From a virus (Duplodnaviria > Caudoviricetes), in IMG/VR virus record IMGVR_UViG_3300010391_000186, positions 1,947 to 65,946 of that record: 64,000 bases of DNA, one strand, 5' to 3'. Each line of letters opens with the position of its first letter. The stretch's first letter is position 1. Shown here in pieces: positions 14,874-57,097 of the stretch. The notes beneath the pieces were generated by a model. That model made no database searches. It saw only the letters and a program-made list of their open reading frames with translations, and was not told the DNA's origin. The position numbers were made by a program, and so were the translations under genes.

Positions 14874-15053
14874 AACAAAAGTCTATATATATTTTTTATG
14901 TGCAGCACTTACATTCTATATAGGTATCGCACTTGCAATAGATAATCATAATATTATTTCAATTTCAATTATTGCTATTGCAACAGTATCAATTTCATCG
15001 TTTTTACTGTGGAGAATCACAAAGATTAAATTTGATATTAAGAAGAGAAAAAC

Positions 15054-15449
15054 ATGAATCCAAAATTCAAGGGATGGGATACAAAAAGAAATAAAATGTA
15101 TTCAGCATCGGAACTAGGTATTGACGAACTAACTATTAATCCAGATGGTCGAGGATTTGTAAATGTAAGCAGCACGGATCAAAAACTAAGTCAATACATG
15201 CAGCATATAATTCCTCTTCAGTTTACTGGACTGAAAGACAAAAACAACACAGAAATATATAAAGGAGATGTATTACAATCAAACGACATGAGTATTCATG
15301 TTGTGGAATATAACATATGCAGATGGTCAGCACGTTTAATAAGAAGAAGAATGGAAAGGTGGCCTGCTCAATTCCTAGACTGTGATTATATGGGATGGAT
15401 AGTAATCGGAAACATATATGAAAATCCAGAATTAATCAAAGGTGTTTGA
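15054..15449 (+). CDS. YopX-family phage protein
   Basis: KFKGWD...LQFTGLKDKNNTEIYKGD...VIGNIYENPEL. Confidence 0.9.
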   Translation: MNPKFKGWDTKRNKMYSASELGIDELTINPDGRGFVNVSSTDQKLSQYMQHIIPLQFTGLKDKNNTEIYKGDVLQSNDMSIHVVEYNICRWSARLIRRRMERWPAQFLDCDYMGWIVIGNIYENPELIKGV

Positions 15450-15451
15450 AT

Positions 15452-16639: not shown

Positions 16640-17729
16640 TGAACCGTTATCTGAAGATGAACCTTGTAGAATATATGGTAACAAAATCATTTTCACAAAA
16701 ACTTTTTCAGAACAATCAGAAACAGAAAAAGAAGTTTCGTTACAGTATATTCTAGACAATGTCTTCGCAGGAGACTTCTGGTATGATTATATCAACGAAG
16801 AATTTTCACACGAAGTCAGAAAACTAGATATGTTCAAACCAAAAGAAATTCTTCATGGAACAACAATAAGCAGAAATAATCTTTGTTCACCTGTTGCAAG
16901 TAGTTTTCATCCACACATCTTGGAAATCAATAATGGAAAGTATAATTCTCCAAATGAAACTTTAGAAGATACAGTTCATCTTAAAAAATGTATTTCAAAT
17001 TATCTTAAAATTACTTCTGGGTCAATAAATTGTTCCGATGCTATACATATATTGAGAACAGCTCGGAAAACGCAAATGGTGAGTAATTTCCGACCTACTG
17101 TTGCAAAGCTAATATACGAAACGTATGGTAACAATGGCTCAGTTCTAGATCCTTGTATGGGTTATGGAGGAAGATTGCTAGGAGCATGGTGTAGTAATAT
17201 CAGCAGCTACACAGGAATAGATCCATGCACAAAAACTTTTGACGGAAATATAAAACTTCAAAACCGTTTGATAGAACTTACTTCTTACAAAGGAAGTATC
17301 ACAGAAATTATACCCAGACCAACAATAATACTACACAAACTTCCATTCGAAGACTTTACCACTAACGAAAAGTTTGACCTTGTATTTACATCTCCACCAT
17401 ACTTCAACACAGAGAAATATTCTAATGAAGATACGCAGTCATGGAAAAGATATCCAACATATTACGTCTGGGTGGATAAATTCCTTGAAATTCTTATCCA
17501 CAACGCACATACATTTCTAAAACCGGGCGGAGTCTTTGCAATAAATATGAAAGATGATCCACTTGCAAAATACAACATCTGGCGAGATGTAATCCGTCTA
17601 AGTAAGAAGTATTTCGGAGAACCCGAAACAATATTGTATATGGAAATGCCAGCCCTACCACTGATTAAAAAGAACTGCGCCAACAGCATAAAAGGTGAAC
17701 CGATAGGAATATTCAGGAAGAAATTATGA
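16623..17729 (+). CDS. DNA amino-methyltransferase (m4C/m6A)
   Basis: SAM-binding VLDPCMGYGGRLLG and catalytic FTSPPYF. Confidence 0.85.
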   Translation: MISLFDEPLSEDEPCRIYGNKIIFTKTFSEQSETEKEVSLQYILDNVFAGDFWYDYINEEFSHEVRKLDMFKPKEILHGTTISRNNLCSPVASSFHPHILEINNGKYNSPNETLEDTVHLKKCISNYLKITSGSINCSDAIHILRTARKTQMVSNFRPTVAKLIYETYGNNGSVLDPCMGYGGRLLGAWCSNISSYTGIDPCTKTFDGNIKLQNRLIELTSYKGSITEIIPRPTIILHKLPFEDFTTNEKFDLVFTSPPYFNTEKYSNEDTQSWKRYPTYYVWVDKFLEILIHNAHTFLKPGGVFAINMKDDPLAKYNIWRDVIRLSKKYFGEPETILYMEMPALPLIKKNCANSIKGEPIGIFRKKL

Positions 17730-30063: not shown

Positions 30064-31032
30064 TTATAATAAAACTATTTTTCCTTTATTTAACACGCTT
30101 TCAAAGTGTGGAACAAATTTTTTATATTCTTCCTTCAGTTTTTCTGGAGTTGCTTTAAAATACGCTGCTCTTGTCGCAGGAATCTTATGTCCCATAAAAT
30201 ATTCTGCAAGTTCACCCATTCCCCATCCTCCAATATTTAGGATTGTGTTGAAAAACATTTTTCTTAAATTATGTGAATGAAACTTATTGTACTCTCTAAA
30301 ACCGGGTTCTCTCATACCAAGATTCATAGCAGTTACACGATACATTTCTAGAAACACATTTTCATTTATTTGTTCACCTTTTTCCAAGCATATCAAATAA
30401 TCACTGTCTTCTAAGTTCATCCTAGTTATCTGATTTATAGATAATTCTGTTGCTGTGGGTGAAAAAAAAGTATGGAACTTTACATTAGTCTTCTGACGTT
30501 GCATGTTTAAGCATGTTATATGATCTTCAGTAAGATTTTCTATAATCATACCCGCTTTAAGTTCACGAGCATCAGACATAGAAATACCAGATGTATATTG
30601 TATCGCAACGATCATTTGCATCAGTGGATCTGATATACGCATAGCATTTGATATATGTTCATCAGTAAGACTGAAATCATTTTCGATGCTTATTGTTGGA
30701 GCAGCTTCTCTCTTCAAAAGCTTCTTGGAAAGTGTTATATCATTTGATGCATAGAACGAACTTACTGCGGCGAGGTATGTTACTCTCGATGTTCGAGACA
30801 TATTCTCTCTTAAGTAATTCTTAAAGGTACCTATGTGGATAGGAAGAGATTGCTTGCTGTAAACAAGTCCGGATTCTTTTTCACACTGCTCAATCAAGTT
30901 TGAAGGAGTAAGACCTATAATACTGCAATACTTCCGCATGACAGTTGTATAGAGTTCTCTTGTATTATTTGTCTTAGACAAACACACTTGATTAAGCCAG
31001 TTAATCAACTTAGGATCATTATCTATTTGCAT
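30064..31032 (-). CDS. int: Tyrosine recombinase/integrase
   Basis: SAM-like N-terminal domain, RQKT, HNLRK, FMGH...TRAAY. The first catalytic Arg position reads SGISMSD. Confidence 0.9.
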   Translation of the reverse strand: MQIDNDPKLINWLNQVCLSKTNNTRELYTTVMRKYCSIIGLTPSNLIEQCEKESGLVYSKQSLPIHIGTFKNYLRENMSRTSRVTYLAAVSSFYASNDITLSKKLLKREAAPTISIENDFSLTDEHISNAMRISDPLMQMIVAIQYTSGISMSDARELKAGMIIENLTEDHITCLNMQRQKTNVKFHTFFSPTATELSINQITRMNLEDSDYLICLEKGEQINENVFLEMYRVTAMNLGMREPGFREYNKFHSHNLRKMFFNTILNIGGWGMGELAEYFMGHKIPATRAAYFKATPEKLKEEYKKFVPHFESVLNKGKIVLL

Positions 31033-34856: not shown

Positions 34857-37799
34857 ATGAATTCAAAAATAGTTCTTTTAATTCTTGCAGTAGTTGCAGC
34901 CATTTCATTAACATATCCAGTAGATGCTTTTGAAGAAACATTCCAGTGGTATCCGGATGGTGTTTTTACAAGTAATTGGGTTGGTGGTGGATCTATAATA
35001 GATGCTGGAACATACAATCGTCAGCATTCACAATCTGCTAGTATTGGTGGTGCGCCGTATTCTAGTTCTAATTATGTACAAAGTAAATACGTTTTTGATT
35101 CAAATTATATTGCTTTCAAAATGGTTACTTGTTCTGGCAGTGCATCGACAGGAAACGATGCTGCTTATGGACAGGTTATATTATATGATACCGATGGTGT
35201 TGCAATACTAACTTATACCATTTGCAGTCGCAGCACTGCAACAGCAAATTCAAATTTTGAATTTCTAAGAGATATTGGCACAAGTCAAGTCCAGCTAAAA
35301 ATAAATAGTGTTTCTCAGGGAAACGTAGGCACTTCTTCAAAAAACATTGGTTATATAAAATTTTATACTTATGCTTATATGTACTGGGTAACTTCAAGTG
35401 CTTCTGTTACACTAACAGTAGATGATATTACCACAACAGGATATATCTCAGGAATAGGTGTAGAAACACCATATCATTCACAAAATGAACTGAATCTAAA
35501 ACCAATGTCTTCTTCATTTTTAATGAAAACAATACCACAAGCAGATTTTGATAGTTCATATTTTGATATAATATGGCAAAAAGCAGCATCAAATGGAACA
35601 CTTCAAACATTATATTCAACAAGAGTGAAAAATGTAAGTGAATCTGTATATTCTGGAGTCAAATATTTAAATAGATACAACAATTTAACTGCCAACGATA
35701 CTAATTACGGATTATATTTTGAACGATTAACAAAAAATGATGTGATTCAATCTTCTGACTATTTCTTCTTAGTTCCAGCAGGAACAACGAATACAATAAC
35801 ATCAGATGCAACTGCAACCATCGGACAACAAGAAATTATTTCCTATTCAATAGGAGCACCTGATTTTGCTGGAAGTTCTTATACAATAAACGTATATTCA
35901 TATAATGCATTGGTTGTATCATTACCTATAGCAACAGGAGCAGCAACCGGAACAGTCACTTGGGATACAGCAGGTAATTCAGCAGGATTATATTTCATAA
36001 CACTATCTAAAACAACTTCTGGAATTCAAACAGATCTTGCTTATACTATAACCACACTTGTTTCAACATTATTGATAAGAGGAACTGTGTATGATGCTGT
36101 AAATGCAACACCTTTATCTGGAGTAAACATAAACTTTTCACAAGGTACAACATGGTATAATACCACTTCAAATGGAAACGGAAGCTACAATCTTTCTGGA
36201 TTAACAGTAGCACTTCTTACACGAATAAACGCTTCAAAATCTACGTGGATGCATAACAATTATTCTTTTACTCCTCTAGCTCCACAAATGTACACAATAA
36301 ATCTATATTTAATTTCTACAGGTTTCAACTGTTCTATAGCAGCAGGTGGTGGAAATTCAACAAACACTTGTATAAACGGGATGGTAGAAAACAATCCTTA
36401 TCATCAAGCAGTTGGCGGAGCAGCGGTTTTTCTTGGAAATGGTTCTTATTTCGCAAACACTACTTCAAACACCACAACCGGATATTATCAATTCTTGAAT
36501 CTTTCTGATGATAACCTGACTTATGTTGTTAATGCAACCAAGTCTGGATTTATGAATTCTCAAGATTACAATGTAACTACAATAAATCAAACAGACGTTC
36601 AGCAAATCATATTAATGAGTGAAATTTACACATTAACGATTCAAGCTCAGGATGCTTCAAATACAAACACCCTTCTAGATTTTCTGTTATTATTCAATCT
36701 AGCAAACTATAATACTACTGTTGGACAGATAACGATTTCAAATTTAGTTTATGGTCAATATCCAGCTATTGTATCTGCCACAGATTATATTTCATCTTCA
36801 CAAACAATTCTTATGGATTCAACAAAAACAGTAACTTTTCTTCTAACACCAATATCAGCAGCGCAAGCAAGCACAATATTCAAAACACTACCACACGATG
36901 TTGCTTTTATAGTTCAAGATCTTGCATTTAATAAAAAATCAGGGGTGTCTGTAACTGCTCAAGGATATAATACAACAGTTGGTTCTTGGACTTGGTTAGC
37001 AGATCTGATCGGAATAGACTTTGATTTAATTCCAATAAATAACATGAGTATGATTGGAATAACAGGAACAGACGGTTCTATTGACTTCAAGATGGATGGA
37101 AGCATTTACTACATTCTAACATTTTCTGGAGGAAATATATCTAATACAACCTGGAGAGGATATCCAACAAAATATGAATACTATATTATAGTGCCAACCA
37201 CCCTTTATGGAACATTCACGAACAACGTAGATCAATTTTCCACAATGATCACAACTGTTTCATCAAAGACAATAAATTCAACACACGCTTACATTAATGC
37301 AAGCCATAATGACAGTATGAATCAAACTTCTAGCATAATTATCTATCTTAACAAATCTATTGTCGGTGATCCAAACAATCAGACAAATCTACAAATTAAA
37401 AACGGCGGAACAAACGCAACATATAACGCATCATTCATAGTTAGTCCTTATGCAGGCAATGATTATATCATAAATTTCAACATGATACATTCTTCAGGAA
37501 CAGTTATTCGTTCTTATGGAGTATCATTTCCACAAACAGCAATATTATCCTATTTCAATCCAATTTCAATCTTAATGCTTTTAATTGGATTAATAATATT
37601 CTTTTCGGGAATATTTGGGCAAACAAGTACCGAACAAGGAGCAGGAATCATAGTAGGTCTCGTCTGGTTATTATCTGGAATGGGTCTATATGTAAATTTA
37701 AATCTAGGTGTATCATTCTATCTTGGATTGACACTTGCAACAGTTATCGCAATACTAATGAATATGAATGCTAGAGCAAGAAAAGAGGGAATGTCATGA
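34857..37799 (+). CDS. Large secreted, membrane-anchored glycoprotein (putative receptor-binding adhesin)
   Basis: Signal peptide, Thr/Ser/Asn-rich beta-sandwich repeats (carboxypeptidase-regulatory-like: IRGTVYDA...PLSGV...GSYNL), many NxS/T sequons and 3 C-terminal TM helices. Confidence 0.8.
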   Translation: MNSKIVLLILAVVAAISLTYPVDAFEETFQWYPDGVFTSNWVGGGSIIDAGTYNRQHSQSASIGGAPYSSSNYVQSKYVFDSNYIAFKMVTCSGSASTGNDAAYGQVILYDTDGVAILTYTICSRSTATANSNFEFLRDIGTSQVQLKINSVSQGNVGTSSKNIGYIKFYTYAYMYWVTSSASVTLTVDDITTTGYISGIGVETPYHSQNELNLKPMSSSFLMKTIPQADFDSSYFDIIWQKAASNGTLQTLYSTRVKNVSESVYSGVKYLNRYNNLTANDTNYGLYFERLTKNDVIQSSDYFFLVPAGTTNTITSDATATIGQQEIISYSIGAPDFAGSSYTINVYSYNALVVSLPIATGAATGTVTWDTAGNSAGLYFITLSKTTSGIQTDLAYTITTLVSTLLIRGTVYDAVNATPLSGVNINFSQGTTWYNTTSNGNGSYNLSGLTVALLTRINASKSTWMHNNYSFTPLAPQMYTINLYLISTGFNCSIAAGGGNSTNTCINGMVENNPYHQAVGGAAVFLGNGSYFANTTSNTTTGYYQFLNLSDDNLTYVVNATKSGFMNSQDYNVTTINQTDVQQIILMSEIYTLTIQAQDASNTNTLLDFLLLFNLANYNTTVGQITISNLVYGQYPAIVSATDYISSSQTILMDSTKTVTFLLTPISAAQASTIFKTLPHDVAFIVQDLAFNKKSGVSVTAQGYNTTVGSWTWLADLIGIDFDLIPINNMSMIGITGTDGSIDFKMDGSIYYILTFSGGNISNTTWRGYPTKYEYYIIVPTTLYGTFTNNVDQFSTMITTVSSKTINSTHAYINASHNDSMNQTSSIIIYLNKSIVGDPNNQTNLQIKNGGTNATYNASFIVSPYAGNDYIINFNMIHSSGTVIRSYGVSFPQTAILSYFNPISILMLLIGLIIFFSGIFGQTSTEQGAGIIVGLVWLLSGMGLYVNLNLGVSFYLGLTLATVIAILMNMNARARKEGMS

Positions 37800-38554: not shown

Positions 38555-38848
38555 ATGAAATATATCCAAAAGTTTCTTAATTCAGATTCAGCAGTTTCGT
38601 TTGGGCTTCTTGCTCTAGCTGCGTTTTTAATTGGAGCGACTGCAATCTGGATAGAATTCTCCCCAATATTCAACATGTTCTTTGCTGCATACAACGTAAA
38701 TATCGCAGCAGGAGAAGTAACACTTCAGAATCAAAAAGCTATGGAATTCCATCAAAATATGATCAGTATTGGAGCTGTAATTGCCCTTCTTATTGGAGCA
38801 GTAGCTTGGGGATATGTAAGAGCATTAGAAAAGAGAAACGATCTATGA
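38555..38848 (+). CDS. Two-TM protein with class III (prepilin-like) leader; putative minor virion protein
   Basis: KFLNSDSA|VSFGLLALAAF followed by a second TM. Confidence 0.65.
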   Translation: MKYIQKFLNSDSAVSFGLLALAAFLIGATAIWIEFSPIFNMFFAAYNVNIAAGEVTLQNQKAMEFHQNMISIGAVIALLIGAVAWGYVRALEKRNDL

Positions 38849-39147
38849 GTTCAATAGAATCATTATTCAAGAGTTTTATAATAATGTTGGTCTGCTTATT
38901 CTCAAGTGTAATGATTACGCAATTCATATTAATGCCCGCTGAACTTGTTAGAACAGAACTTGTAAAAACAGGAATAGCAGATGCACCACCAGAATGGGGA
39001 GGAATGGGTATATCTGATTTCACTTTAAGTCTTGGATACTTCTTAACATACTTCTTAGACTTCTTTGCAGTCGGACAATTTATTTGGACTGCGGTTCGTC
39101 GCCAGAAATACGATGTGTACGGCAATGTAATTTCAGAAGGTGACTAA
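38845..39147 (+). CDS. Two-TM putative virion protein
   Basis: Two hydrophobic helices; overlaps the upstream stop (ATGA). Confidence 0.6.
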   Translation: MSSIESLFKSFIIMLVCLFSSVMITQFILMPAELVRTELVKTGIADAPPEWGGMGISDFTLSLGYFLTYFLDFFAVGQFIWTAVRRQKYDVYGNVISEGD

Positions 39148-39149
39148 TC

Positions 39150-42100
39150 TTGGGATTATTTGATTGGTTCTTTTCGGGTGGACAGCAAACTTTTCAAAAT
39201 ATAATAACTCCTGTCGCACCACAAACAGGAACCATAGGAGCAGCAGTAGCGACGGCACAGCAAGCAACAAGACCACAAACAGCTACTCAACAATCTGTTG
39301 CACCTGCACCAACCCTATCAGTTCCTCTCCCAGAACAAATCCGTTTGATGACAACACAAGAAGCAGTATCTCCATTTTCTGGAATATCATCTTTCTTAAA
39401 AGATTCTGCTGAAAATGTATCCTCTCAATTATCTGGAATTCTTAGACCCATAATTGAAACTCCTCAAGTTCAAGCAGCAATAAAAGCAGTAACATCAACA
39501 GCAGCACCAGTGCAAACTCCTCAAACAGTAAGTGATATGTCACAATTTTCTAGAGATATTTATGGGGGAGCTTCAAGAATTGCAGCAGTTATCGGAACAG
39601 GAATGGGAATAGCTGACATTGGAGCAAGACGTATTGAAAGACAGCTTCCAGGAGGGCTATCAGAATTATATGGAGCAACATATGAACTAGGAAAAGGAAT
39701 ATTCTTGAGCGCACCAAGATTAACTGTTGATATGGCTGGAATGATTCCGGGCGGTGTTGAAACAATAGCAAAGAATATACCAATGTTACCAGCATTTGCA
39801 GCAGCAGGAGTCATATCTCAAGTATCAGGATTACAAGAAGGATTTTCTCAAAGACCCATACAAACAATAGGAGAACTTATTGGAATGGGAGCAATGGGTG
39901 AAGCTGGAAAAGTTGTTCGTTTTGGACAAGTCAAAATACCAACCGCTGCGGGAGAAGTTCCAGTATGGAAAGGAGCATATTTAGATATTGGAGCAACACC
40001 ACGTCCTATCGTAGGTTACGTTCCTGAATTTATTGCAAAACCTATCACAGAACCAATAGCAATAGGATTCCGTCCAGAAACATCTATTACTAAAGCAGTT
40101 GAAACAGCAAGAACAGCAAAAACAGTTTTCGGAACCCCTTCATCATTAGAAATCCCGCAAATAACAGATATAACAGCAGGATATTTCCCACGATCTGCAC
40201 TTGAAACAGCTATTGTCGCAAGACCCGAAATACTCACAAAACTTGGAATGGAACCAACAGCAGCAACAAAGATTTCTGTCGGAAGAGAACTTATTGGATT
40301 AACATCTGGACAAAAAACAGCGTTCCAACTTACAAGACCATATTCTTTCGAAATATTTGGAAAAGAAATAGTAACACCATTTAAAGTTCCAACACTCATA
40401 GCAGAAACAGAATCATTATCATCAGCGGGTGTATCAACAACACTACAATATTTAAAAACAGAGAAATTCAAACTAACTGATGTTCCAAAAGTTGGAGAAT
40501 TAACAGCACTAGAAAGACTTACTGAAATAAATAAAGAAATACTAAAAGCGAAAACACCTCTTGAAGGAGATTATTCTTTTAAATCCACAATGGAACTTGA
40601 AACATCTCCAGGAAAGAAAGTATCATATTATGATATTTTAGAGTCAGGAAAAACAATAGGAACAACTCTTATAGAAGCTTCTGGAAAAGATGTTAAAATT
40701 GGAACGTTTGAATTATCACCAGAATTTCGTGGCAAAGGCATAGGAACTGGTCTAGCAGAAAAAATCTTAAAAGAATTTGAACTGTCTGGTATGGAAAAAG
40801 TCAGTCTTATACCAAAAGATGTAAGAGCAGCAAACTTCTGGCAAAAAATAGGATTTGAATATTCTAGAGAAGTTACTGGAACAATGGAACTTAAATTACA
40901 AGGAAGAACAAAACTTCCAGAGTATTCAATTGAAGATCTATTAACTATTTCTAGACCGGTTTTTGAAAGAATGGGTATCGATTTATCTAGAGGAAAACTA
41001 ATAGAAGAAATAAGATACGCTGCTCCAGGAGAAATCCCAAAAGGTATATCAGATCAAACTAGAATTTCAGAAGTATCCATACAAAGAGCAGCATTCTCCA
41101 AAACTGAAACACCACTTACATACGAAATATTACTGCAAAAAGGAGAACCTCTAAAACAAACAATAGAAACACTAGCTCACGAAATAAGTCACGCTGTACT
41201 AGAAAAAGGATTTGAAGAAAGTTCATTTGTAGCTGAACCAACAGCAATAAAAGGTTCTGGAATATTTTTAAGTGAATTCTCAAAATACTATGCAGCCGCA
41301 AAGATTAAACCACAAGCCGGTTTTGGATTAATAAACTTAATTCAAAAAGAATATGCTCCATATGTTGTTGGAAAATATACATCAGAAATTCCTTATCGTC
41401 CAGCCATAAAATCAGAATACAGAACGCAGTATCCAACAGAAGTCAAACCATTAATCGAAAAAGTTATGGGTAGCTTTTCTGCTCAAGCACAAATGATGCC
41501 AGAATTTAGAAGAGTTGCTGGTGATATTGATATCCATACTCGTGGTACAACAGAACAAGCTGTTCAACTCGCAACAGGACTACAAGCAAAGCTAGCAGAA
41601 ATCGGAATAGAATCTCGTGTATCTGGATCAACTGTAGAAACAAGAGGTATATCTAAAGAATGGGTTCACGCAGTACAATTCCTTCCAAAAGAAGAACTTT
41701 CTTATATTGGAACTGAAGGAGCAGGACTTAGATACGGTATCAAAGTAGAGCAACCGCCCATGACTGTAGAAGGTATGCCAGTAATGAAATTGGGAGAACA
41801 AGCTACAAGAAAAATCACAGGAAGCTTAGAATTTAGAGAAGGAAAACTACAACCAGCAGAACATAGATTATTAAAAGATGTTCGTGATGCATATACAACA
41901 GCATTTACTCTTATTGAATCAAAATCAGCAAAAATTGGAATCCCTATACTAAAAGATATTGAAGTTGCTAGAGGAAGACAATTATTACAGCAGTGGAAAG
42001 AACTATATCCTGAAATTGATTGGATAAAAGTTGGTCAAGAACCAATAAAAATGGAAATTCAAATCGAAGGAATAAGTAAAGGAACAAAAAAAGCATCTCT

Positions 42101-42770
42101 AACAAGTGAAATAAATAAATATGCAGAAAGAATTTCAGAACAAAAACCATATACTTTTAGTGCTATATCTGAAGCAGCAAACGTTCCATATGTTCCTTCA
42201 ACATATGAAAAAACAGCGTCTGTCTATACAAGAGAGTTCACTCCATTTACAGAAGAAATATATCCGATTCAAGCAAAACCTGAAAAATATTCACCAGCTT
42301 TAATATACGGAGTAGATTATCCAATAATAAAAGAACCATCATATAGATTTCCTTTTACAGAAGTTCCAACATATAAAACAACAGAATATCCTCCAGATAA
42401 AGTTCCGTCTTACATCCCAACAGTTTATCCTCCAACAGATATTCCTAAATATCCAACCCCATACACTCCAGAAAAGGTTCCTCCATACGTTCCAACAGTG
42501 TACACACCAGAATTATATCCACCCGAAGTATATCCACCAGAAACATATCCGCCTTATGGTGGTATTGGAACTCCGTTTGATCCTATTAAAATAATCAAAC
42601 CATTGAAAGATGAGGTGTTTATAGGAAAAAGAAAAAAGACAATAAAAAGAAAATCAGTAGCATATACAATCAAAAATCCACTTGCAGACTTAGAAGATGT
42701 ACTTGGAATTATGGATGCAGATATTAGAAAAGAAATAAATCCGACAAAAAAGAAAAGGAAGTCAAAATGA
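39150..42770 (+). CDS. 1206-aa polyvalent protein: GNAT acetyltransferase, HExxH zincin and nucleotidyltransferase, with Pro/Tyr-rich tail
   Basis: FRGKGIG...AANFWQKIGF, LAHEISHA, MGSF...GDIDIH and YPPE/YVPT repeats. TTG start after GAAGGTGA. Confidence 0.75.
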   Translation: MGLFDWFFSGGQQTFQNIITPVAPQTGTIGAAVATAQQATRPQTATQQSVAPAPTLSVPLPEQIRLMTTQEAVSPFSGISSFLKDSAENVSSQLSGILRPIIETPQVQAAIKAVTSTAAPVQTPQTVSDMSQFSRDIYGGASRIAAVIGTGMGIADIGARRIERQLPGGLSELYGATYELGKGIFLSAPRLTVDMAGMIPGGVETIAKNIPMLPAFAAAGVISQVSGLQEGFSQRPIQTIGELIGMGAMGEAGKVVRFGQVKIPTAAGEVPVWKGAYLDIGATPRPIVGYVPEFIAKPITEPIAIGFRPETSITKAVETARTAKTVFGTPSSLEIPQITDITAGYFPRSALETAIVARPEILTKLGMEPTAATKISVGRELIGLTSGQKTAFQLTRPYSFEIFGKEIVTPFKVPTLIAETESLSSAGVSTTLQYLKTEKFKLTDVPKVGELTALERLTEINKEILKAKTPLEGDYSFKSTMELETSPGKKVSYYDILESGKTIGTTLIEASGKDVKIGTFELSPEFRGKGIGTGLAEKILKEFELSGMEKVSLIPKDVRAANFWQKIGFEYSREVTGTMELKLQGRTKLPEYSIEDLLTISRPVFERMGIDLSRGKLIEEIRYAAPGEIPKGISDQTRISEVSIQRAAFSKTETPLTYEILLQKGEPLKQTIETLAHEISHAVLEKGFEESSFVAEPTAIKGSGIFLSEFSKYYAAAKIKPQAGFGLINLIQKEYAPYVVGKYTSEIPYRPAIKSEYRTQYPTEVKPLIEKVMGSFSAQAQMMPEFRRVAGDIDIHTRGTTEQAVQLATGLQAKLAEIGIESRVSGSTVETRGISKEWVHAVQFLPKEELSYIGTEGAGLRYGIKVEQPPMTVEGMPVMKLGEQATRKITGSLEFREGKLQPAEHRLLKDVRDAYTTAFTLIESKSAKIGIPILKDIEVARGRQLLQQWKELYPEIDWIKVGQEPIKMEIQIEGISKGTKKASLTSEINKYAERISEQKPYTFSAISEAANVPYVPSTYEKTASVYTREFTPFTEEIYPIQAKPEKYSPALIYGVDYPIIKEPSYRFPFTEVPTYKTTEYPPDKVPSYIPTVYPPTDIPKYPTPYTPEKVPPYVPTVYTPELYPPEVYPPETYPPYGGIGTPFDPIKIIKPLKDEVFIGKRKKTIKRKSVAYTIKNPLADLEDVLGIMDADIRKEINPTKKKRKSK

Positions 42771-43156
42771 GATTCTATCACATAGCTCTTGGAGTATGGG
42801 TATTTATGCTTTGTTTAAGCATGGTTAATTCTCTTGGGATATTTGCATATAAGATGCCAACTGCTAATTTTGATACTTCAGCATCTGATGCACAAATAAC
42901 ACAATTAACAAACACAATGTCTCAATCACAGGACTCTGGTGGATTTTCAAGCATTGTTGCAGGAGCAGGACTTATAGCAAATTCTTTTTCCTATATGTTA
43001 AATGTGTTCTGGAAATCAATAAACATAATCGGACTTGGAAATGCATACGGTGTAGATATAAGAATTTCTGCACCGTTTCAAGCACTTTATGTCTTTACAT
43101 TAGTCTTCGGACTCTATCAATTCTTAACAGGAAGAGCCGCAAAAATAATGGAGTAA
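42767..43156 (+). CDS. Membrane protein, putative virion component
   Basis: N- and C-terminal TM segments; ends YQFLTGR. Confidence 0.6.
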   Translation: MRFYHIALGVWVFMLCLSMVNSLGIFAYKMPTANFDTSASDAQITQLTNTMSQSQDSGGFSSIVAGAGLIANSFSYMLNVFWKSINIIGLGNAYGVDIRISAPFQALYVFTLVFGLYQFLTGRAAKIME

Positions 43157-43160
43157 ACAC

Positions 43161-43940
43161 ATGGAAAAAATGTCGATGGGTCAAAGAATTACAGAAAATA
43201 AACTGCGTTCAAAATTAAAATATTACATTCCAGTGAGTTTTAGTATGAGTAAGAATATCCTTCTTGTATTAACTGTTATTATGTGCGCCATAATTCTTCT
43301 TACATTTATTGCATCAGCAGCACCACCAGTTATTTCAATAATAAATAATTCAAAAACAAATACTTCATCTTCATATGGAATATTTTTGAATAATTCAGAA
43401 TCAATTACATTTAGAGTAAATACTACAAACACTTCTAATACCTGGAACTGGTATAAAGACAGTGTTCTTGTAGTAAACAATTTCAATAATTACACAACAT
43501 CTTTCACCACTGGTTCTTATCATTATGTTAAAGTCAATACAACAAATTCAAGTGGAACTTCTAATAATTTAACTTGGGGAATCAATGTGTTCCCAGCGAT
43601 GGCAACATCTCCTGGAAACAAAATAAATCTATTAAATGAATCTCCTTCACAAGATCTTGCAACAGCAATAGAAAATAATGATATGCCCGGATTAGTGAAC
43701 TCACCAGTCAAAGTATATATAAATCTTATAGGGTTATCTTTCTATGCAGTAATATGGTTCATAGTGTTCGGAATGTTGTGGATAAAACAAGCATCAATAA
43801 ACATCCCTTCAATAGTTGGAGTCATCTTTGGCGGAATTCTAGTAACATTCCTACCCGCTCAATATCAGTTAGTATCACAAGCTCTAATCGTGTTTGGAAT
43901 ATTTGCTGTTATCTATGTATTCTACAAAGGAAGAGGATAA
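43161..43940 (+). CDS. Glycosylated Ig/PKD-like protein with 3 C-terminal TM helices (putative virion protein)
   Basis: Signal/TM segment, Asn/Thr-rich ectodomain (WNWYKD) and a three-TM tail like that of the adhesin. Confidence 0.65.
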   Translation: MEKMSMGQRITENKLRSKLKYYIPVSFSMSKNILLVLTVIMCAIILLTFIASAAPPVISIINNSKTNTSSSYGIFLNNSESITFRVNTTNTSNTWNWYKDSVLVVNNFNNYTTSFTTGSYHYVKVNTTNSSGTSNNLTWGINVFPAMATSPGNKINLLNESPSQDLATAIENNDMPGLVNSPVKVYINLIGLSFYAVIWFIVFGMLWIKQASINIPSIVGVIFGGILVTFLPAQYQLVSQALIVFGIFAVIYVFYKGRG

Positions 43941-44442
43941 ATATATGATTCAAACAAACAATATGAAGAAGTAAATATGAAAAAAAACTGCATTCACTGT
44001 AATCATCCAATGACACCAGCAAGTGAAGAATATTCTAAATACACAAAAGGATTTATTAAACTTGATGAATTAATCTGTAGAATTCACGGAACAAAACAAA
44101 TGCAGTTTGAACATTTATCAGAAAAAGAAAAAAGAAAATACAAATTGGAGATAATATGAATGAAATGGATTTAGAAAAAGCAAAAAAATCCTTAAAACAA
44201 CTTAAAAAGGATCAAGCAACAGTAAGAAAAAGTAGAGTAAAAGGATTTGATTCAAGCACTGTATCTGGAATGTTTGGAAATCTTAGAAGATCCGAAGAAA
44301 TTCGTTTCCATTTTGAACTAGAAAATGCAAAATCATTAGTAAAAGAAGAAGAAAAGAAACAGATAAAAGTTCCATATACTAATCAGGAATTGGTGTGGCT
44401 AGGATATAAAGATAAAAAAGATTATATAAAACAACATTTGAG

Positions 44443-44844
44443 GTGAAAAATATGAATGAAATACCACTTTCACTATTCAACATGCTTCTTGCATTGGATC
44501 TAATTATCATAGCATATTCTCTATACGGAATAGGTTTTGATAAACCAGTAAAAATAGATAAAATTCTGACATCAGTAATCGCATCTCCATTATCATTCAT
44601 TCTTGCAGGATATATTATCAATGGAGAAGTAGTTCAGACATATGTGGACACAACAGGATATCATTATATCCCGTTTCAGTCTTTACCAGTTCATTATTTT
44701 CTTCTAGGATTTGCTGTCCTTATGGGAGTAATAACAATTCTTCTTATAGTAAAATTCATAAGTGATCACTTTGAATCACTAGAGAAAAAATCAGCACTTG
44801 GAGACTGGCACCAAAGCAGCTTTTCAGAGAGGAAGATAAGATGA
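44443..44844 (+). CDS. Three-TM membrane protein
   Basis: Three hydrophobic helices. Confidence 0.6.
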   Translation: MKNMNEIPLSLFNMLLALDLIIIAYSLYGIGFDKPVKIDKILTSVIASPLSFILAGYIINGEVVQTYVDTTGYHYIPFQSLPVHYFLLGFAVLMGVITILLIVKFISDHFESLEKKSALGDWHQSSFSERKIR

Positions 44845-45062
44845 TAAGAAACAGTATAATCAAAAAGAAAAGAACAAAAAGATTCGGTACGCTTGATGAA
44901 GCAATGACAGCAGCAACAGGACTTGATAAGATTCAGCGTCAAACTTTTAGAGAGAACACTAATGAGATAATGAAAAATACTTCGTTATCTAGAGAAGAAA
45001 AAGTTAAGAAACTAATAGCGATCGGAGCATTACCAGTAGGTTCAAAATAGGAAGAGCAAAAT

Positions 45063-45347
45063 ATGTCAAAAGGAATAGGAATAATATTAACTGTTTCATT
45101 ACTAGCTGCTGCTCTAGTAATAGTCAATACATACATGACCACATCTCTATCTTCAACTTCTCAAGGAGTAAACTTATCAAGTTCTCCACAGGAAATTCAG
45201 GATGCATATAACGCAAGTCAAAACACAGCAATCGCATCAGTCGCAGTTTCACACTGGACAGTATATTTGATAGGAATATTTGCTGTAATAATAGTCCTTG
45301 TCGTCCTTATACTAATGGTTCAATTGAATAGAAGAAAAGCTAGATGA
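45063..45347 (+). CDS. Two-helix hydrophobic protein, putative minor capsid protein
   Basis: TM-loop(NLS, NAS sequons)-TM-basic tail, directly upstream of the MCP candidates. Confidence 0.6.
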   Translation: MSKGIGIILTVSLLAAALVIVNTYMTTSLSSTSQGVNLSSSPQEIQDAYNASQNTAIASVAVSHWTVYLIGIFAVIIVLVVLILMVQLNRRKAR

Positions 45348-45552
45348 TAATTCTTTTTTATTTAAAATCATCAACAGTAGCTCGTCTTTTAAACGATTTC
45401 AGCAAGGTTTCATTTTAGTTTTAGTATTAAGTATCGCTGCATTTTAGCTCAAAACTAAGTATATATACTGTTCTTCTTTATATACTCTAAAATCAATTAC
45501 TGGATAGTTGATTTATAAACTTGAACTCATAGTTCAGGAAGGTGATTTACAA

Positions 45553-45972
45553 ATGACAAAATCAATAACCAAGAAAGCAATCGCTTTTGGAAAGAAATTC
45601 TTGAAGAATGAAGATGCTCAGATGGGAGGTGTCGGTACTCTTTACGCAGTGTTCTTCGCTGCAATCGTAGTCCTAGCAATAATCATCATATTCACCTTCA
45701 TCCCAGGAATTGGCTCAACAGTTGAGCAGTCCACACCAGCAGCACCAGCATACGGAAAGCCCGGTGGAGCATGGAACGCATCTGACGCAGCTAATCCAAA
45801 TGCAGCAGCACTTCAGACATCAAGTGGCGCAGCAATCTGGACAAGCACTTCAGGAATGCTGAAAGTTGCGATGATCATAGGTATCGTCGTAATCATACTT
45901 GGCAGCTTGTTCGCAATCTTTGCAGCACGCAGAGCTGAAGCAGGCGGAGGGGGCGGCGGAGGTCCCATGTAA
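45553..45972 (+). CDS. Putative major capsid protein 1 (spindle-virus-type two-helix hairpin) with prepilin-like leader
   Basis: Own TATA promoter (about 45460-45485), GGAAGGTGA RBS, KNEDA|QMGG leader, two long hydrophobic helices, C-ending codon bias. Confidence 0.7.
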   Translation: MTKSITKKAIAFGKKFLKNEDAQMGGVGTLYAVFFAAIVVLAIIIIFTFIPGIGSTVEQSTPAAPAYGKPGGAWNASDAANPNAAALQTSSGAAIWTSTSGMLKVAMIIGIVVIILGSLFAIFAARRAEAGGGGGGGPM

Positions 45973-45995
45973 GTGTCTAAAGACACAGTTAGATC

Positions 45996-46022
45996 TGGGG
46001 GAGAAATCCCCCACAACTTTTT
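45996..46022 (+). terminator. GC-rich hairpin plus T-run between the capsid paralogues
   Basis: TGGGGGA-GAAA-TCCCCCA followed by caacttttt. A second hairpin GTGTCT-aa-AGACAC lies at 45973-45986. Confidence 0.6.
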
Positions 46023-46054
46023 CCAAAACAGTCATATTGGAGGTGAAAAATAAA

Positions 46055-46501
46055 ATGACAAAGTCAATAACCAAAAAGATTCAGAAATATACATCCAAAT
46101 TCATAAAGAATGATAAAGCCCAAATGGGCGGTGTAGGAACTCTCTATGCTGTGTTCTTCGCAGCTATTGTGGTACTTGCAATAATCATAATCTTTACATT
46201 CATACCCGGAATTGGAAGCACTGTTGAACAATCAACACCAGCATCTCCAGCTTATTGCACAAATACAACAAATGCGACAACGTGTGCGGCAAGCTTAGTC
46301 CGTGGTGGAGTGTGGAACGCAACAGACACAAACAACCCGAATCAGGCAGCACTTGCAACATCTAGCGGCGCAGCTATATGGACTTCAACAAGTGGAATGC
46401 TCAAAGTAGCTATGATAATTGGCATAGTAGTCATTATCCTCGGCAGCTTGTTCGCAATCTTCAGGACAAGACGTCAGGAAGGTGGCGGCGGAGGCATGTA
46501 A
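46055..46501 (+). CDS. Putative major capsid protein 2 (paralogue of MCP1)
   Basis: GGAGGTGA RBS, KNDKA|QMGG leader, helices identical to MCP1 with a different loop. Confidence 0.7.
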   Translation: MTKSITKKIQKYTSKFIKNDKAQMGGVGTLYAVFFAAIVVLAIIIIFTFIPGIGSTVEQSTPASPAYCTNTTNATTCAASLVRGGVWNATDTNNPNQAALATSSGAAIWTSTSGMLKVAMIIGIVVIILGSLFAIFRTRRQEGGGGGM

Positions 46502-46520: not shown

Positions 46521-46557
46521 TTCAGAGAGGATGCCAGAAATTCTCTCTGAAATTTTA
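46521..46557 (+). terminator. Hairpin after MCP2
   Basis: TTCAGAGAG...CTCTCTGAA followed by a T-rich stretch. Confidence 0.5.
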
Positions 46558-46623
46558 TAAAACTATTTTCAAACTCTTAAACAAAATCAAATTATATATA
46601 CTTATAACTCTATATTGAAATCC

Positions 46624-46971
46624 ATGGTTGTATTACTTCAGACCGGATTACCCAATATCGCAGTTTCCGCAATAGAGAACGGAACTATTCAAAAAATGTG
46701 GAATTCTTCTTATCATTTTCTACAACTTGCAGCACTTGAAAAACTACAACGTGAAGGTCTGATTAATTTTGACAACGTAATATTCATCCATTATTTCTGT
46801 CCTTCATGCAACAGACACATCTGCGTCCTTCCAGAAATTGCAGGACTCCACGAATGGTTATACTGTTCAAAATGTCATCCAAACGCAACTACAAAAGAAA
46901 ATTCTATGATTAGAAACGGAAGCGTTTTAGGAAAAGAGATACCTAAAGAAGCAGAAATAAGAAGGTGCTGA
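46624..46971 (+). CDS. Zn-finger protein
   Basis: FCPSC...YCSKC, preceded by an AACTCTTAAAC variant motif and TATA. Confidence 0.55.
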   Translation: MVVLLQTGLPNIAVSAIENGTIQKMWNSSYHFLQLAALEKLQREGLINFDNVIFIHYFCPSCNRHICVLPEIAGLHEWLYCSKCHPNATTKENSMIRNGSVLGKEIPKEAEIRRC

Positions 46972-47521
46972 TGAAGAAAATAGAATCTATTTCAAGAATA
47001 ATTATTTGGATATCATTTAATGTTTTCAATATATTTGTTTTGAATACAATTATGTTTACATTAATTAACTTTGCTCTATACACTACAAATGAAATTAATC
47101 CAAAAACAATATGGTATCCACTTTCAAGATTCCTTCAAATATATTTATTTATTTTGTCTTTTGCAGTGCTTTATTTTACATATGTTATCTACATAAAACC
47201 CTGTATGAAAAAGGTATCAAAAACATGAATTTCAAACAAACAAAATTGATTATGGAAGAACGTGTTGTGAGATTTTTCTTATACTTAATATCAAGCGCAC
47301 CAGAATGGAAAATAGAGAAATTTCTTAACGAAGTATATAATTCAGGATAAAAAATATGGAAATAATTAATCCACACATACTTTTAGAATTTAGAAGAATA
47401 AAAGTAGAACTTATTGCAAAAGGACATATAAAATCGAAATTGCCATTATCAGATGATGAACAAATGTTTGCTCATTTAATATCAATTTATGAAGCAACAA
47501 AAAATTTTATAGGAGAATAAA

Positions 47522-48046
47522 ATGCACATACCAATTATCAGCAATCTATTAAGTCCTAAAAATCAGGGAATGGAACAGTTGATGCCTTCACACAACATTA
47601 ATTTCTCAGGATCTCCTGGAGCAGATTATCCAGAATCATATTACAGAAATCAAACAGAAATTCGAAAAGTAAGTTCTCAAAAAGAAATGAATGACTGGGT
47701 AGAAGATGCACTGTTATCTAGAAGATGCAAGGATGCTTTCAAATCACTTATAGCAAACTTGTATGATGATAACATTATCTTATCTTATCATGCGCTTGAA
47801 ATACAAGCAGAGATCTCTTTTTTAAAAGCAAAAGTTTATCTGAAAGCTTTCGTTACAGCAAACTCTTATAGATCTGACGTATATAATCCAGTCTGGGGTC
47901 TCATAACAAATGAAATATTCTATCAGCTTGAACTTCGATTTACTAGAACGATTGCCGGTGATAGAGAAAGAATAGTTCAAGGAAAGATTCAGCAGGACTA
48001 CAACATAACTCAAAATATGTCAAGAGAAATTACTCCAATACGGTGA
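47522..48046 (+). CDS. Hypothetical protein
   Basis: 174-aa ORF with AGGAG RBS. Confidence 0.6.
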   Translation: MHIPIISNLLSPKNQGMEQLMPSHNINFSGSPGADYPESYYRNQTEIRKVSSQKEMNDWVEDALLSRRCKDAFKSLIANLYDDNIILSYHALEIQAEISFLKAKVYLKAFVTANSYRSDVYNPVWGLITNEIFYQLELRFTRTIAGDRERIVQGKIQQDYNITQNMSREITPIR

Positions 48047-48879
48047 TATTATGAATAAAATATTAGAAACCATTAAGAAAACTGTAAACAAAATCATAAA
48101 ACATGTTGCATATGAACAAAGAAGCGTTTCATACATAAGATTTATTGTTCTAGGCCTGTATCTTGCGGTATCTTTTCTAATAACTATACTATTTGCTTTT
48201 GGGAGTATGCTTAGAGAAGGGGTCTTAATAGTAAATCCATTTAGAACGCATCTTTCTAGCAAAGCAGTTTCTGATATTTATGGATTCTTAATAATAGATA
48301 AGATATTATTTATGCTTCTTATAGCATCATTCTTCCTTGTATTATCTAAAGAATATCAGGAATATCATGCACGAAAAATAATCAAGAAATATAAACTGGA
48401 TGTAATAGAATGAAAGCAGCAAAAGTTTCTTCAATTGACAATCCATCGATAAAAGATCTTCTAAATATGGAACACTGGGCACTTATGAATAATCTTCATG
48501 TTCATCCAGCTTTTATGAAAGCGTGTAAGAAGAAAAACAGCGTATTAATCATATCTTATTCTGTTGTAATGCTTGTGATCATAATTATAGCATTAGTGGT
48601 GAAATAAAATATGGAAATAATAAAACTATCAAAAATTATGGCGTTAAGACTATCTTCTATAAACGCAGGAATAGCAATTCTAACATTTTTTGCACTTGAA
48701 CTTTTTAATCATATACAGATACCAGTTTTTCAGTGGAATCTAGTATTTGGTTTTGATATGTCTGAAGGAGAAATACTTATCAATACAATTAGAATATTCG
48801 GTATCACTTCTGGACTATCTATGATTTTCATAGGATTGAGTTCAAGGTGTTGGATAACAGTAATGAAGGAGGATTAAAA

Positions 48880-49872
48880 ATGGCAGAAGTAGGACTTTTA
48901 GATATAGGATTGTCAATAACAATAATGGACTTAATAATTATAGTTATTCTTGCAATGTTAGTATCGCAGCTTCCACATCTTTATTTTTGGTTAGAAAGAA
49001 GAAGAATGAATCCAGAGGGACCAATCTTTATTTCTGCAAGAAAAAATGGATATCCAATTATTGAAAGAGTTGCAATGAGTGGATTCACGCGCTTTGAAAT
49101 AGGAGAAAAAGAAGTTAGAGGTGATCCAGTATTCAAAATGGATAGAAACACACGTCAAGGAGTCCATCTTGATCCTAGATTATCTTCCGGTGGAGTACCT
49201 AGAGAATTCCTTGCTGGTGGAGCTGAAATAATGCACTATTCAACATCTTCGCCAACTTCAATGTCTTCAAAAACTGCTCTAGCAATGAGTACAATAATCA
49301 AACACGTTCGAAAGAATTATCCATATCTAGATTTCCTTCCAGAACAACTTATTATTGAACTTATATATAGAAATCGTAAGGACTTGATACACGACTGTAA
49401 AAACATTATTGAGATGTATGACTTTGAAGGAAAGATAAACGTACCATTAACGATTCTTGCAGCATTCAAAGAAGACATTATAGAACAACTAAGAACAAGA
49501 TATATGGAAGAAGGAAAAACAGACGAACCTTCAAAAGATGATATTGATGCAGCGTATGAACAAAACGTAAAGTCGTATCAGAGAATGTATCAAGCGAAAA
49601 CACTTGCTGAAACACTACAAAAAATCCAAGATGAATCAGTTCAACTTCCAGTGGAAACAAATAGATTCTTCTCGTTCGTAGAAGCGTTCCAGAATTCACC
49701 AATAGCAACATTTGCAGCAGATCTTCAAAACTATCTTACAACCATAGAACTTATCGCAGAAAAGAAGAAATCACTTACAGAAAAGGATAAAATGATGATG
49801 TATGCAATGGCAGCACTTATAATCATAATAGGTGGAGCTGTTGCTATGAACATGCTACCAGCAAGGAAATAA
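48880..49872 (+). CDS. Membrane protein with N- and C-terminal TM and a large soluble domain
   Basis: GGAGG RBS; flanked by several small TM ORFs (48051-48877, 50558-51164). Confidence 0.65.
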   Translation: MAEVGLLDIGLSITIMDLIIIVILAMLVSQLPHLYFWLERRRMNPEGPIFISARKNGYPIIERVAMSGFTRFEIGEKEVRGDPVFKMDRNTRQGVHLDPRLSSGGVPREFLAGGAEIMHYSTSSPTSMSSKTALAMSTIIKHVRKNYPYLDFLPEQLIIELIYRNRKDLIHDCKNIIEMYDFEGKINVPLTILAAFKEDIIEQLRTRYMEEGKTDEPSKDDIDAAYEQNVKSYQRMYQAKTLAETLQKIQDESVQLPVETNRFFSFVEAFQNSPIATFAADLQNYLTTIELIAEKKKSLTEKDKMMMYAMAALIIIIGGAVAMNMLPARK

Positions 49873-56653: not shown

Positions 56654-57097
56654 ATGTCAAAATACAAAGAGTCAGAAAACTATAGGAATTATATGCAGTG
56701 GATAGCGGAAACAGAGAGTAGACCAGCAGTATCACAGCCAGAAGACGCTGCAAGGACAGCCATTCCTATGATAGAAGACATAACAAAAGAGTATTTCATA
56801 CTTCTCTGTTTAGACACTAAAAACAAAGTTATAAACAAGCAAGTTATCAGCATAGGATCTCTAAATGCAAATACTGTTCATCCTAGAGAAGTATTCAAAG
56901 CAGCATTATTAAGCAGTGCAGCGCATATAATAGTCTTGCATAATCATCCTAGTGGTGATCCAATTCCTAGTAGAGAGGACATTGAGATAACTAAGAAGCT
57001 GCATGAAGCTGGTAAGATGATGGGAATAGATCTTTGTGATCATGTAATCATTGGAGCAGGAAAGAATTTCAGTATGAAAGAGGCTGGACACATATGA
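56654..57097 (+). CDS. radC: RadC-like JAB domain protein
   Basis: VHPREVFKAA...HNHPSGDPIPSREDI...DHVII. Confidence 0.92.
   Translation: MSKYKESENYRNYMQWIAETESRPAVSQPEDAARTAIPMIEDITKEYFILLCLDTKNKVINKQVISIGSLNANTVHPREVFKAALLSSAAHIIVLHNHPSGDPIPSREDIEITKKLHEAGKMMGIDLCDHVIIGAGKNFSMKEAGHI

Follow-up and report, generated by a model that had tools for sequence, protein, structure and literature searches.

Detachable-looking leaders on two-helix membrane proteins of a divergent, almost certainly archaeal virus, and their possible removal by the prepilin peptidase of the host

The maturation of spindle-shaped and other archaea-specific virions is poorly understood. The cut site of VP1, the coat protein of SSV1, was reportedly mapped in the 1980s. 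A study from 2017 (PMC5748691) describes mature VP1 as beginning at a universally conserved Glu, with an N-terminal extension that is poorly conserved except for a patch just upstream of the cut, and deletion of the five residues upstream of the cut kills the virus. The same study calls the protease unknown, leaves it open whether the cleavage is viral, cellular or autocatalytic, and describes SSV1 as having no open reading frame (ORF) clearly similar to proteases; the structure of VP1 of SSV19 has been described as a hydrophobic alpha-hairpin (PMC9351363). Our subject is a set of proteins with leaders of a similar kind, encoded in a stretch of virus DNA that we call the window, which is 64,000 nucleotides long and makes up bases 1947-65946 of the 65,946-bp IMG/VR record IMGVR_UViG_3300010391_000186. 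Two tandem genes on its plus strand, at 45553..45972 and 46055..46501, encode hairpin proteins of 139 and 148 amino acids (aa), i.e. proteins with two hydrophobic helices, and a 97-aa two-helix membrane protein is encoded further upstream at 38555..38848. An original prediction, made from the letters of the sequence, held that these are capsid-like proteins which carry archaeal class III (prepilin) signal peptides, and that virion maturation borrows the prepilin peptidase of the host.

Archaeal prepilin peptidases are described as cutting before a hydrophobic domain and after Gly, Ala or Ser, and a charged residue at position -2 is usually required and is called critical for the archaeal enzymes (PMC4371748). 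The sites in Table 1 of that paper include RAQI and KGQV/L/I for EppA, KAIS, KGIS and RALS for PibD of Sulfolobus, and DAVS and RAVS for Haloferax, and EppA is said to require Gln at +1, with Glu at +5 being typical of its substrates. A Sulfolobus strain with a disrupted pibD does not support SSV9, the cause of which is, according to its authors, the loss of pilins needed for infection (PMC7217056). Our own literature search, a full-text search with subscription journals and supplements outside its scope, found no paper that links fusellovirus coat maturation to a prepilin peptidase.

Both hairpin proteins of the window begin with a Lys-rich leader, which is followed by a long hydrophobic helix. 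A loop of 35-50 residues with N-x-S/T sequons links this helix to a second hydrophobic one, and the C-terminus is a basic tail rich in Gly. The leader has 22 residues in both proteins (45553-45618 and 46055-46120). In the 139-aa protein the predicted cut lies between A22 and Q23, the leader has a net charge of +4, the loop carries a single sequon (NAS, residue 75) and the tail ends G-P-M, while in the 148-aa protein the leader ends K-A before Q, and the loop is longer and has three sequons and two Cys. The translations confirm the N-termini as they were first read, with KKFLKNEDA followed by QMGG at 45553, SKFIKNDKA followed by QMGG at 46055 and QKFLNSDSA followed by VSFG at 38555, and in all three proteins an uncharged hydrophobic stretch comes next, with another close to the C-terminus. 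An AlphaFold2 (AF2) model of the 139-aa protein has helices at residues 5-18, 25-60, 84-89 and 92-130 (mean pLDDT 71.5). We take the ATGs at 45553 and 46055 to be the real starts, because homologues begin there and because Shine-Dalgarno-like sequences, read by eye, precede them (GGTGA at 45541-45545, 7 nt 5' of the first ATG, and GGAGGTGA at 46039-46046, 8 nt 5' of the second). A terminator-like G+C hairpin with a T-run lies between the two genes (45996..46013, plus strand; minimum free energy -19.3 kcal/mol for 45966-46030, z -2.49), and another terminator-like hairpin stands after the second gene on the same strand (46521..46551). The paralogues are 84% identical overall and have identical residues from 23 to 63, and we regard them as old, strongly constrained tandem duplicates.

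The pattern of conservation around the predicted cut site, unlike the motif taken alone, exceeds chance. Between the paralogues, 13 of codons 1-22 differ, 9 by replacement and 4 by silent changes only, whereas 27 codons differ among the 44 codons from 23 to 66, with 1 replacement and 26 silent-only changes (Fisher p 2.3e-5 for the contrast between the leader and the rest). The gene at 38555 gives a similar picture when it is compared with its orthologue in G001, a collinear virus and the single close relative that scans of viral contigs found: the 13-codon leader has 5 replacements and 2 silent changes, and the other 84 codons have 2 replacements and 20 silent changes (p 0.0032). The wider hairpin family is small, with 20 proteins in a set of 5.8 billion and 16 representatives in a set of 1.84 billion. 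Of the family, 36 sequences were read by eye, with two long repetitive matches (P0027 and P0031) left out. A leader of 6-30 residues is present in 34 of the 36. In a 21-row alignment (A1) the share of the majority residue is 0.57 over positions 1-21, and then 0.95 at A22, 1.0 at Q23 and 0.95 over positions 24-62.

By eye, all 34 leader-bearing members have G or A at -1, and the residue is A in all three window proteins (45553, 46055 and 38555). Position +1 is Q at 23 of the sites (24 with P0030 in another register) and N at 6, with D, V, T and G or I once each, and position -2 is K, R, D or E at 23 sites, S at 8, N at 2 and Q at 1, the charged residue being D in 45553 and K in 46055. All eight sites with S at -2 have E or D at -3, and throughout the family an uncharged hydrophobic run begins 0-6 residues past the site. 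The leader can also be lacking altogether. In L016, a distantly related 13-kb metagenome contig with 40.8% G+C, the homologue of the 38555 protein (88 aa, 46% identity, E 3e-22) begins M-V-S-F-G, that is, after the Met at the predicted +1, and the stop of the preceding gene is 3 nt upstream. In the hairpin family, P0034 begins two residues before the helix motif, at the end of the 21-residue leader of P0033. These observations support the view that the leaders look like detachable pre-sequences which end directly before the first helix.

The C-termini of the family are also alike, since a basic stretch is followed by a final G-G-(P/A)?-(M/L) in 28 of the 36 members, and G-M closes one more. 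This conserved Gly run with a single hydrophobic residue at the very end could be a second site of processing or cross-linking, and any tie between a RadC-like JAB protein of the virus (56654-57097) and such Gly-Gly-type C-termini, or leader removal, is speculation. In the family member P0024 (247 aa) two hairpin units are fused within a single frame, and each unit has a leader and a G↓N site of its own (the arrow marks the predicted cut). P0024 is either an artefact of gene calling or a natural polyprotein that would require internal cleavage.

In the explanation that we favour, the two hairpin proteins would be the major shell protein pair of the virion, in the manner of VP1 and VP3 of the fuselloviruses and VP21 of His1. 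Each would first exist as a precursor, with a Lys-rich leader of 22 residues, and the first helix would insert into the membrane so that the leader is cytoplasmic and the sequon loop outside. The class III signal (prepilin) peptidase of the host would then clip the leader at [D/K]-A↓Q, just before the helix and from the cytoplasmic side. After that the mature hairpin would be built into the virion so that its basic Gly-rich tail faces the DNA. The 97-aa protein at 38555, and possibly a 94-aa protein at 45063, would use the same kind of leader. We infer the topology, the cleavage and the identity of the enzyme from the sequences, and the parts of the chain do not have the same strength. The virion module is built from membrane proteins. 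The hairpin pair is probably the main shell or envelope protein, we lean towards the leaders being removed, and if they are removed it is quite probable that the enzyme is the class III signal peptidase of the host. The whole chain of shell role, leader removal and host peptidase is more tentative, and we would stop a little short of calling it probable. Simply multiplying its links would make it doubtful, but we hold it higher than that because the links stand or fall together, as the evidence for cleavage also supports the coat role.

The sites D-A↓Q-M (45553), K-A↓Q-M (46055) and S-A↓V-S (38555) have the form of the published prepilin peptidase sites, apart from the uncharged -2 of 38555 and the missing +5 Glu. 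The likeness is to the archaeal type IV pilins and archaellins handled by PibD, FlaK and EppA, which have a short charged leader, G or A at -1 and a hydrophobic domain directly after it, and the Q at +1 is shared with the EppA substrates; K-A-Q-M and D-A-Q-M resemble RAQI, KGQV and DAVS. The same form is found in the fuselloviruses themselves. In the VP1 precursors from GenBank the residues ahead of the conserved Glu are K-G in SSV1, K-A in SSV2, R-A in SSV19, K-G in ASV1, R-A in SSVRH and R-G in SSVK1, so that all six full-length precursors have [K/R][G/A]↓E; VP1 of SMF1 was left out of this count, being annotated from inside the helix. Read from the first ATG of the SSV1 frame, the Glu is residue 72 and the product has 73 residues.

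The enzyme would have to come from the host. The original prediction had noted neither a prepilin peptidase nor a pilus ATPase in the window, and this holds for the complete 65,946-bp record: six-frame searches of it (G000) found no Peptidase_A24 and no T2SSE pilus ATPase. Peptidase_A24 was absent from the relative G001 as well, and the same search gave matches in 12 of 14 control genomes.

For the coat role, much of the argument is architecture and context. Hairpin capsid proteins of spindle viruses have about 70-150 aa, a pair of hydrophobic helices, a loop that can be glycosylated and a basic end, and often they are tandem paralogues; the hairpin proteins of the window fit this general profile. 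Their genes lie in a conserved module for membrane proteins and glycoproteins, with strong Shine-Dalgarno sequences ahead of the two paralogues and terminator-like hairpins behind them, and the record has no Phage_capsid match. Tandem hairpin pairs occur in all three loci that have enough sequence (the window, G001 and L016), and in L016 the hairpin proteins, encoded at L016:4587-5560, are about 37% identical to those of the window. Like VP1 and VP3 of SSV1, the major and minor capsid proteins of the Fuselloviridae, the window proteins are small tandem paralogues with two hydrophobic helices, a sequon loop and a short basic C-terminus, and SSV1 VP1 also has a poorly conserved N-terminal extension which, according to PMC5748691, is removed directly before helix 1. 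There are also clear differences. The window proteins have a loop of 35-50 residues and a Gly-rich tail, both window paralogues have a leader whereas VP3 has none, the +1 residue is a universal Glu in fusellovirus VP1 and Q, N, D or V in the window family, and the window genome is four times larger than that of a fusellovirus, with its own polymerase, ribonucleotide reductase (RNR), clamp-loader-like ATPases and ligase. VP21, the major capsid protein of His1 (Halspiviridae), shares the two helices, a Pro after helix 1, a loop in which W-N/S comes after the sequon, another W ahead of helix 2 and a basic end. The window proteins differ from it in being about twice as long, in their long leader and Gly tail and in having no match to its Pfam model, and homology is not established.

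Profile comparison points weakly in the direction of His1. With hhalign, the hairpin family (A3) against a 17-row alignment of His1-type coat proteins (A6) gave a probability of 42.8% (E 2.5e-4, score 27.1), and this score was reached by none of 200 column shuffles of A6 (maximum 17.5) and none of 200 local shuffles (maximum 23.8); the reversed alignment scored 23.9. Against SSV1 VP1 the probability was 16.8%. In the ESM Atlas the nearest named clusters were His1-capsid, at 0.83 for the 139-aa and 0.80 for the 97-aa protein, and VP1-like at 0.82, which we treat as leads only. In 16 of the 17 proteins in A6 the first helix follows a nearly invariant G-V, in front of which stands a variable N-terminus of 4-10 residues, and the remaining one starts inside the helix region; the logic of leader and site may, from these sequences, apply to Halspiviridae too.

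Several results weigh against the coat role. The hidden Markov models (HMMs) of the known coats, His1_capsid (PF25665) and VP1_VP3 (PF06281), gave no match in the six frames of the genome, the latter at E <= 10, and the hhalign probabilities are low for both the His1 family and SSV1 VP1 (43% and 17%). Foldseek searches with the hairpin model gave 1 match in PDB and 49 in BFVD at E <= 10, and none at E <= 0.001. The 97-aa protein has the same layout as the hairpin paralogues in miniature, with a 13-residue leader (38555-38593), and its gene belongs to a conserved trio with those at 38806-39147 and 39150-42770, but it does not match the profile of the hairpin family even at E <= 10 and so belongs to a different family; the term capsid-like is weaker for this protein because of its lack of detectable homology to those at 45553 and 46055. 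The two-helix architecture, the context of the module and the weak profile match to the His1 coat family together point to a capsid role for the pair at 45553 and 46055.

Other results weigh against the prepilin peptidase. The leader motif by itself is no more than chance: our own loose FlaFind-type rule (K/R/D/E at -2 and G/A/S at -1, with a hydrophobic run no more than 8 residues away) flags 12 of the 435 Met-started frames of the plus strand (9 distinct ORFs), and it also flags 5 of 117 frames (4 ORFs) of the nearly non-coding minus strand. The site at 38555, with S at -2, fails the rule. A charged -2 is missing at 11 of the 34 family sites as well as at 38555, and the +5 Glu of EppA substrates is absent from the window sites. 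Pilin_N (PF07790) matched 4 of 18 members with a best E of 0.013 and Flp1_like (PF16982) 2 of 18 with a best E of 0.011, both below the curated cut-offs; N-terminal fragments of five proteins matched no pilin family, NCBIfam held no relevant match for the hairpin proteins, and no Pfam, PHROGs or NCBIfam match to the hairpins rose above cut-offs when they and their neighbours were searched. The family profile against PDB sequences gave as its best relevant row 8fj5, a "Pilin_N domain-containing protein", at E 0.19, which is not significant. Type IV pilins and archaellins also have one membrane helix and a globular domain, whereas the window proteins have two helices and no globular domain. The claim of a borrowed peptidase stands in part, on detachable-looking leaders, the lack of a viral peptidase and an SSV1 VP1 site of the same form, while the missing pilin HMM matches, the uncharged -2 residues, the missing +5 Glu and the second helix all count against it.

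One more N-terminus deserves mention, which was absent from the first list. The 94-aa protein encoded at 45063..45347 on the plus strand begins M-S-K-G followed by I-G-I-I-L, which makes it a class III-like candidate whose leader would have four residues, G being at -1 and K at -2. A hydrophobic helix lies at its N-terminus, a membrane helix ends it, and it carries two sequons. No homologue of it was found in G001, where the assembly breaks, or in L016.

Among the other explanations, the one that survives best is that the leader is never removed. It would then be a basic amphipathic arm in the cytoplasm or the virion interior which touches DNA or membrane, and G/A-Q/N would be a helix-breaking hinge. 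In the AF2 model of the 139-aa protein the leader helix (5-18) is followed by a break at 19-24, and the small residue could be a mere hinge, which is a further point against cleavage. The net charge of this leader suits an arm, the relaxed leader sequence would be explained if the charge pattern alone matters, the lack of pilin HMM matches agrees with it, and in L016 a separate 82-aa protein of very basic character, a possible substitute for the arm, comes before the leaderless 88-aa homologue. The charge of the leader is however not conserved, as the 21-residue leader of P0033 is acidic and that of P0025 has only six residues, and a hinge leaves unexplained both the leaderless homologues that begin exactly at the site and the fact that SSV1 VP1 really is cut at the corresponding position. 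We find a retained arm possible but unlikely.

A leader that is removed could also be the work of another protease, either an unrelated one from the host or a viral one, and the virus has two candidates, namely the RadC-like JAB domain protein (56654-57097; Pfam E 1.3e-44) and the H-E-x-x-H motif in the translation of 39150-42770, a 1206-aa protein. The -2 residue is often uncharged, and PMC5748691 leaves the nature of the cleavage open for SSV1. Against this, the H-E-x-x-H motif was not seen, reading by eye, in the 798-aa homologue of L016, SSV1 has the same form of site and is described as being without a clear protease-like ORF (PMC5748691), and a cut after G or A just N-terminal of a membrane helix is how class III peptidases are described to behave (PMC4371748). 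We regard another protease as rather improbable.

Slightly less probable still is that the proteins are not part of a virion shell at all and have some other membrane function in a mobile element, be it as a holin, in exclusion, in the vesicles of a plasmid-like element or as the subunit of a pilin-like filament of type IV or conjugative type. In favour of this, the coat role is itself no more than an inference, the capsid HMMs had no match, and the weak, sub-threshold Pfam rows for the hairpin proteins include pilin, holin and TrbL names. Conjugation-type pilins (VirB2/TraA and the archaeal Ced/Ted pilins) are two-helix hairpins with N-terminal processing. The window proteins, however, sit in a conserved module of viral morphogenesis type together with large secreted, sequon-rich proteins, in a record which IMG/VR classes as a virus, complete and with terminal repeats; they show extreme purifying selection and a conserved tandem pairing, as do VP1/VP3, and their similarity to the His1 coat family profile exceeds 400 of 400 shuffles. 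Type IV pilins are served by an assembly ATPase and platform, whereas the virus record has no T2SSE ATPase or platform genes; the hairpin family also has an uncharged -2 at 11 of the 34 sites and stays below the pilin thresholds, and the +5 Glu is absent. The hairpin model had no Foldseek match in PDB at E <= 0.001, which sets it apart from conjugative hairpin pilins. We reject a conjugative or type IV pilus because six-frame searches of the complete record found neither a T2SSE nor an AAA_10 (VirB4-like) ATPase, nor a Peptidase_A24, and the conjugative pilus that the original prediction had named as its alternative is thereby left with no support; no FtsK/HerA-type family turned up among the 50 ORFs of the Pfam scans either. 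A signal peptidase I signal, finally, is rejected: no other part of the protein is as well conserved as the hydrophobic domain that follows the site, which therefore cannot be the core of a discarded signal.

The genes around the hairpin pair are for the most part shared with L016. That contig encodes the large sequon-rich protein, again with three helices at its C-terminus, as well as the 129-aa and 259/359-aa proteins, the two tandem hairpins, the Cys-rich 118-aa, the 174-aa and the 341-aa proteins, and the trio of the 97-aa, the 113-aa and the giant protein. All are on the plus strand in the window. The first of them (34857..37799) encodes a secreted, sequon-rich protein of 980 aa with CarboxypepD_reg-like domains and three C-terminal hydrophobic helices, which from its sequence is a probable receptor-binding or terminal virion protein. 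Beside the 97-aa protein a conserved 113-aa membrane protein is encoded (38806..39147), followed by the 1206-aa protein (39150..42770), which has a GNAT domain (residues 489-572), the H-E-x-x-H motif, a Pro/Tyr-rich repeat region and a basic C-terminus, and whose homologue in L016 has only 798 aa. In L016 a very basic 82-aa protein, possibly a DNA-binding virion protein, is encoded at L016:9372-9620, immediately 5' of the leaderless homologue of the 97-aa protein.

Next come a 129-aa protein with an N-terminal signal-like helix (42767..43156; 49% identity in L016) and a 259-aa protein (43161..43940; 61% identical to its L016 homologue), for which a low-confidence model suggests a helix at the N-terminus, then a beta-sandwich, and three hydrophobic helices at the C-terminus. 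This AF2 model, built from a 2-row alignment, has a pLDDT of 47.9 and is too poor for use, and Foldseek gave it generic beta-sandwich matches alone, none at E <= 0.001; the suspected likeness is to the adaptor protein of SSV19, which is described as a beta-sandwich with a three-helix bundle (PMC9351363). PDB sequence searches with the 259-aa, 980-aa and 129-aa proteins gave no match. Downstream of the hairpin pair, conserved genes at 46615..49872 encode the 118-aa Cys-rich, 174-aa, 120-aa and 341-aa proteins, with no Pfam match.

The record has direct terminal repeats and is rated as 100% complete by IMG/VR, and the plus strand carries nearly all genes of the window, the minus strand being almost gene-free. 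Its only large gene is a tyrosine integrase (30064-31032, minus strand). Pfam scans of 50 ORFs of the window identified a class II-type RNR (8267-10603), a family B DNA polymerase (PolB) of 686 aa (17726-19786), two RFC/Rad17-like AAA ATPases of clamp-loader type, an ATP-dependent ligase, a PD-(D/E)XK nuclease, an ERCC4-like nuclease, an Ogg-type glycosylase and the RadC-like JAB protein. Among the 50 there was no match to any capsid, portal or terminase family, nor to a family of pilus ATPases or A24 peptidases. HK97-type Phage_capsid had no match in a six-frame search of the whole record, double-jelly-roll (DJR) models not being searched by name. Two radical SAM proteins of 478 and 397 aa are encoded directly 5' of an N6/N4 DNA methylase (13437-17729), and the three may form a cassette for DNA or nucleotide modification.

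PolB is about 25% identical to that of haloarchaeal tailed viruses, and the named cellular homologues of the RNR, about 41% identical, are from Archaeoglobi, Methanosuratincola and other archaea, while one partial match at 54% is labelled Patescibacteria. Several of the RNR relatives bear intein/Hint and homing-endonuclease Pfam domains. As the polymerase is so distant and the relatives of the RNR are archaeal, we consider from these sequences that the virus is new, belongs to a very divergent lineage with its own replisome and is almost certainly archaeal. PolB of the relative G001 (39281-42508) has 1075 aa against 686 aa in the window, with 94% identity over 415 aligned residues, and the extra length probably comes from an insertion, such as an intein. 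One DNA run, labelled sediment metagenome, contains the stretch and may be its source, and no RNA run containing it is listed. Scans of 185,579 species, with one genome for each, turned up no related provirus, and a tblastn search with the hairpin protein and the 1206-aa protein had no match in 50,697 records of phages and archaeal viruses.

The new element here, which is partly supported, is that a virus lineage not known before may use a variant of the coat maturation of SSV1, and this strengthens the hypothesis on the protease of SSV1 VP1. In an independent and very divergent 66-kb lineage, two unrelated proteins of the virion module have predicted detachable leaders whose sites are of one kind, and the genome of the virus lacks a prepilin peptidase. 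With these leaders and the [K/R][G/A]↓E of six out of six fusellovirus VP1 proteins, the host prepilin peptidase becomes therefore a concrete and testable candidate, and as Sulfolobus pibD mutants exist (PMC7217056) a genetic system is at hand. It is a more doubtful extension, although not a far-fetched one, that the class III peptidase of the host could be the general maturation protease of hairpin-type coats across spindle-shaped and related viruses of archaea, SSV1 VP1 included, and that the leader and first helix could then be a targeting and processing module of pilin or archaellin type, either borrowed or shared by ancestry. If the proposed maturation is true, pilus biogenesis would be linked to virion assembly, mutants in the prepilin peptidase would be predicted to block virus production after entry, besides at entry, and the leader with its site would be a sequence signature for spotting coat proteins in unclassified archaeal viruses.

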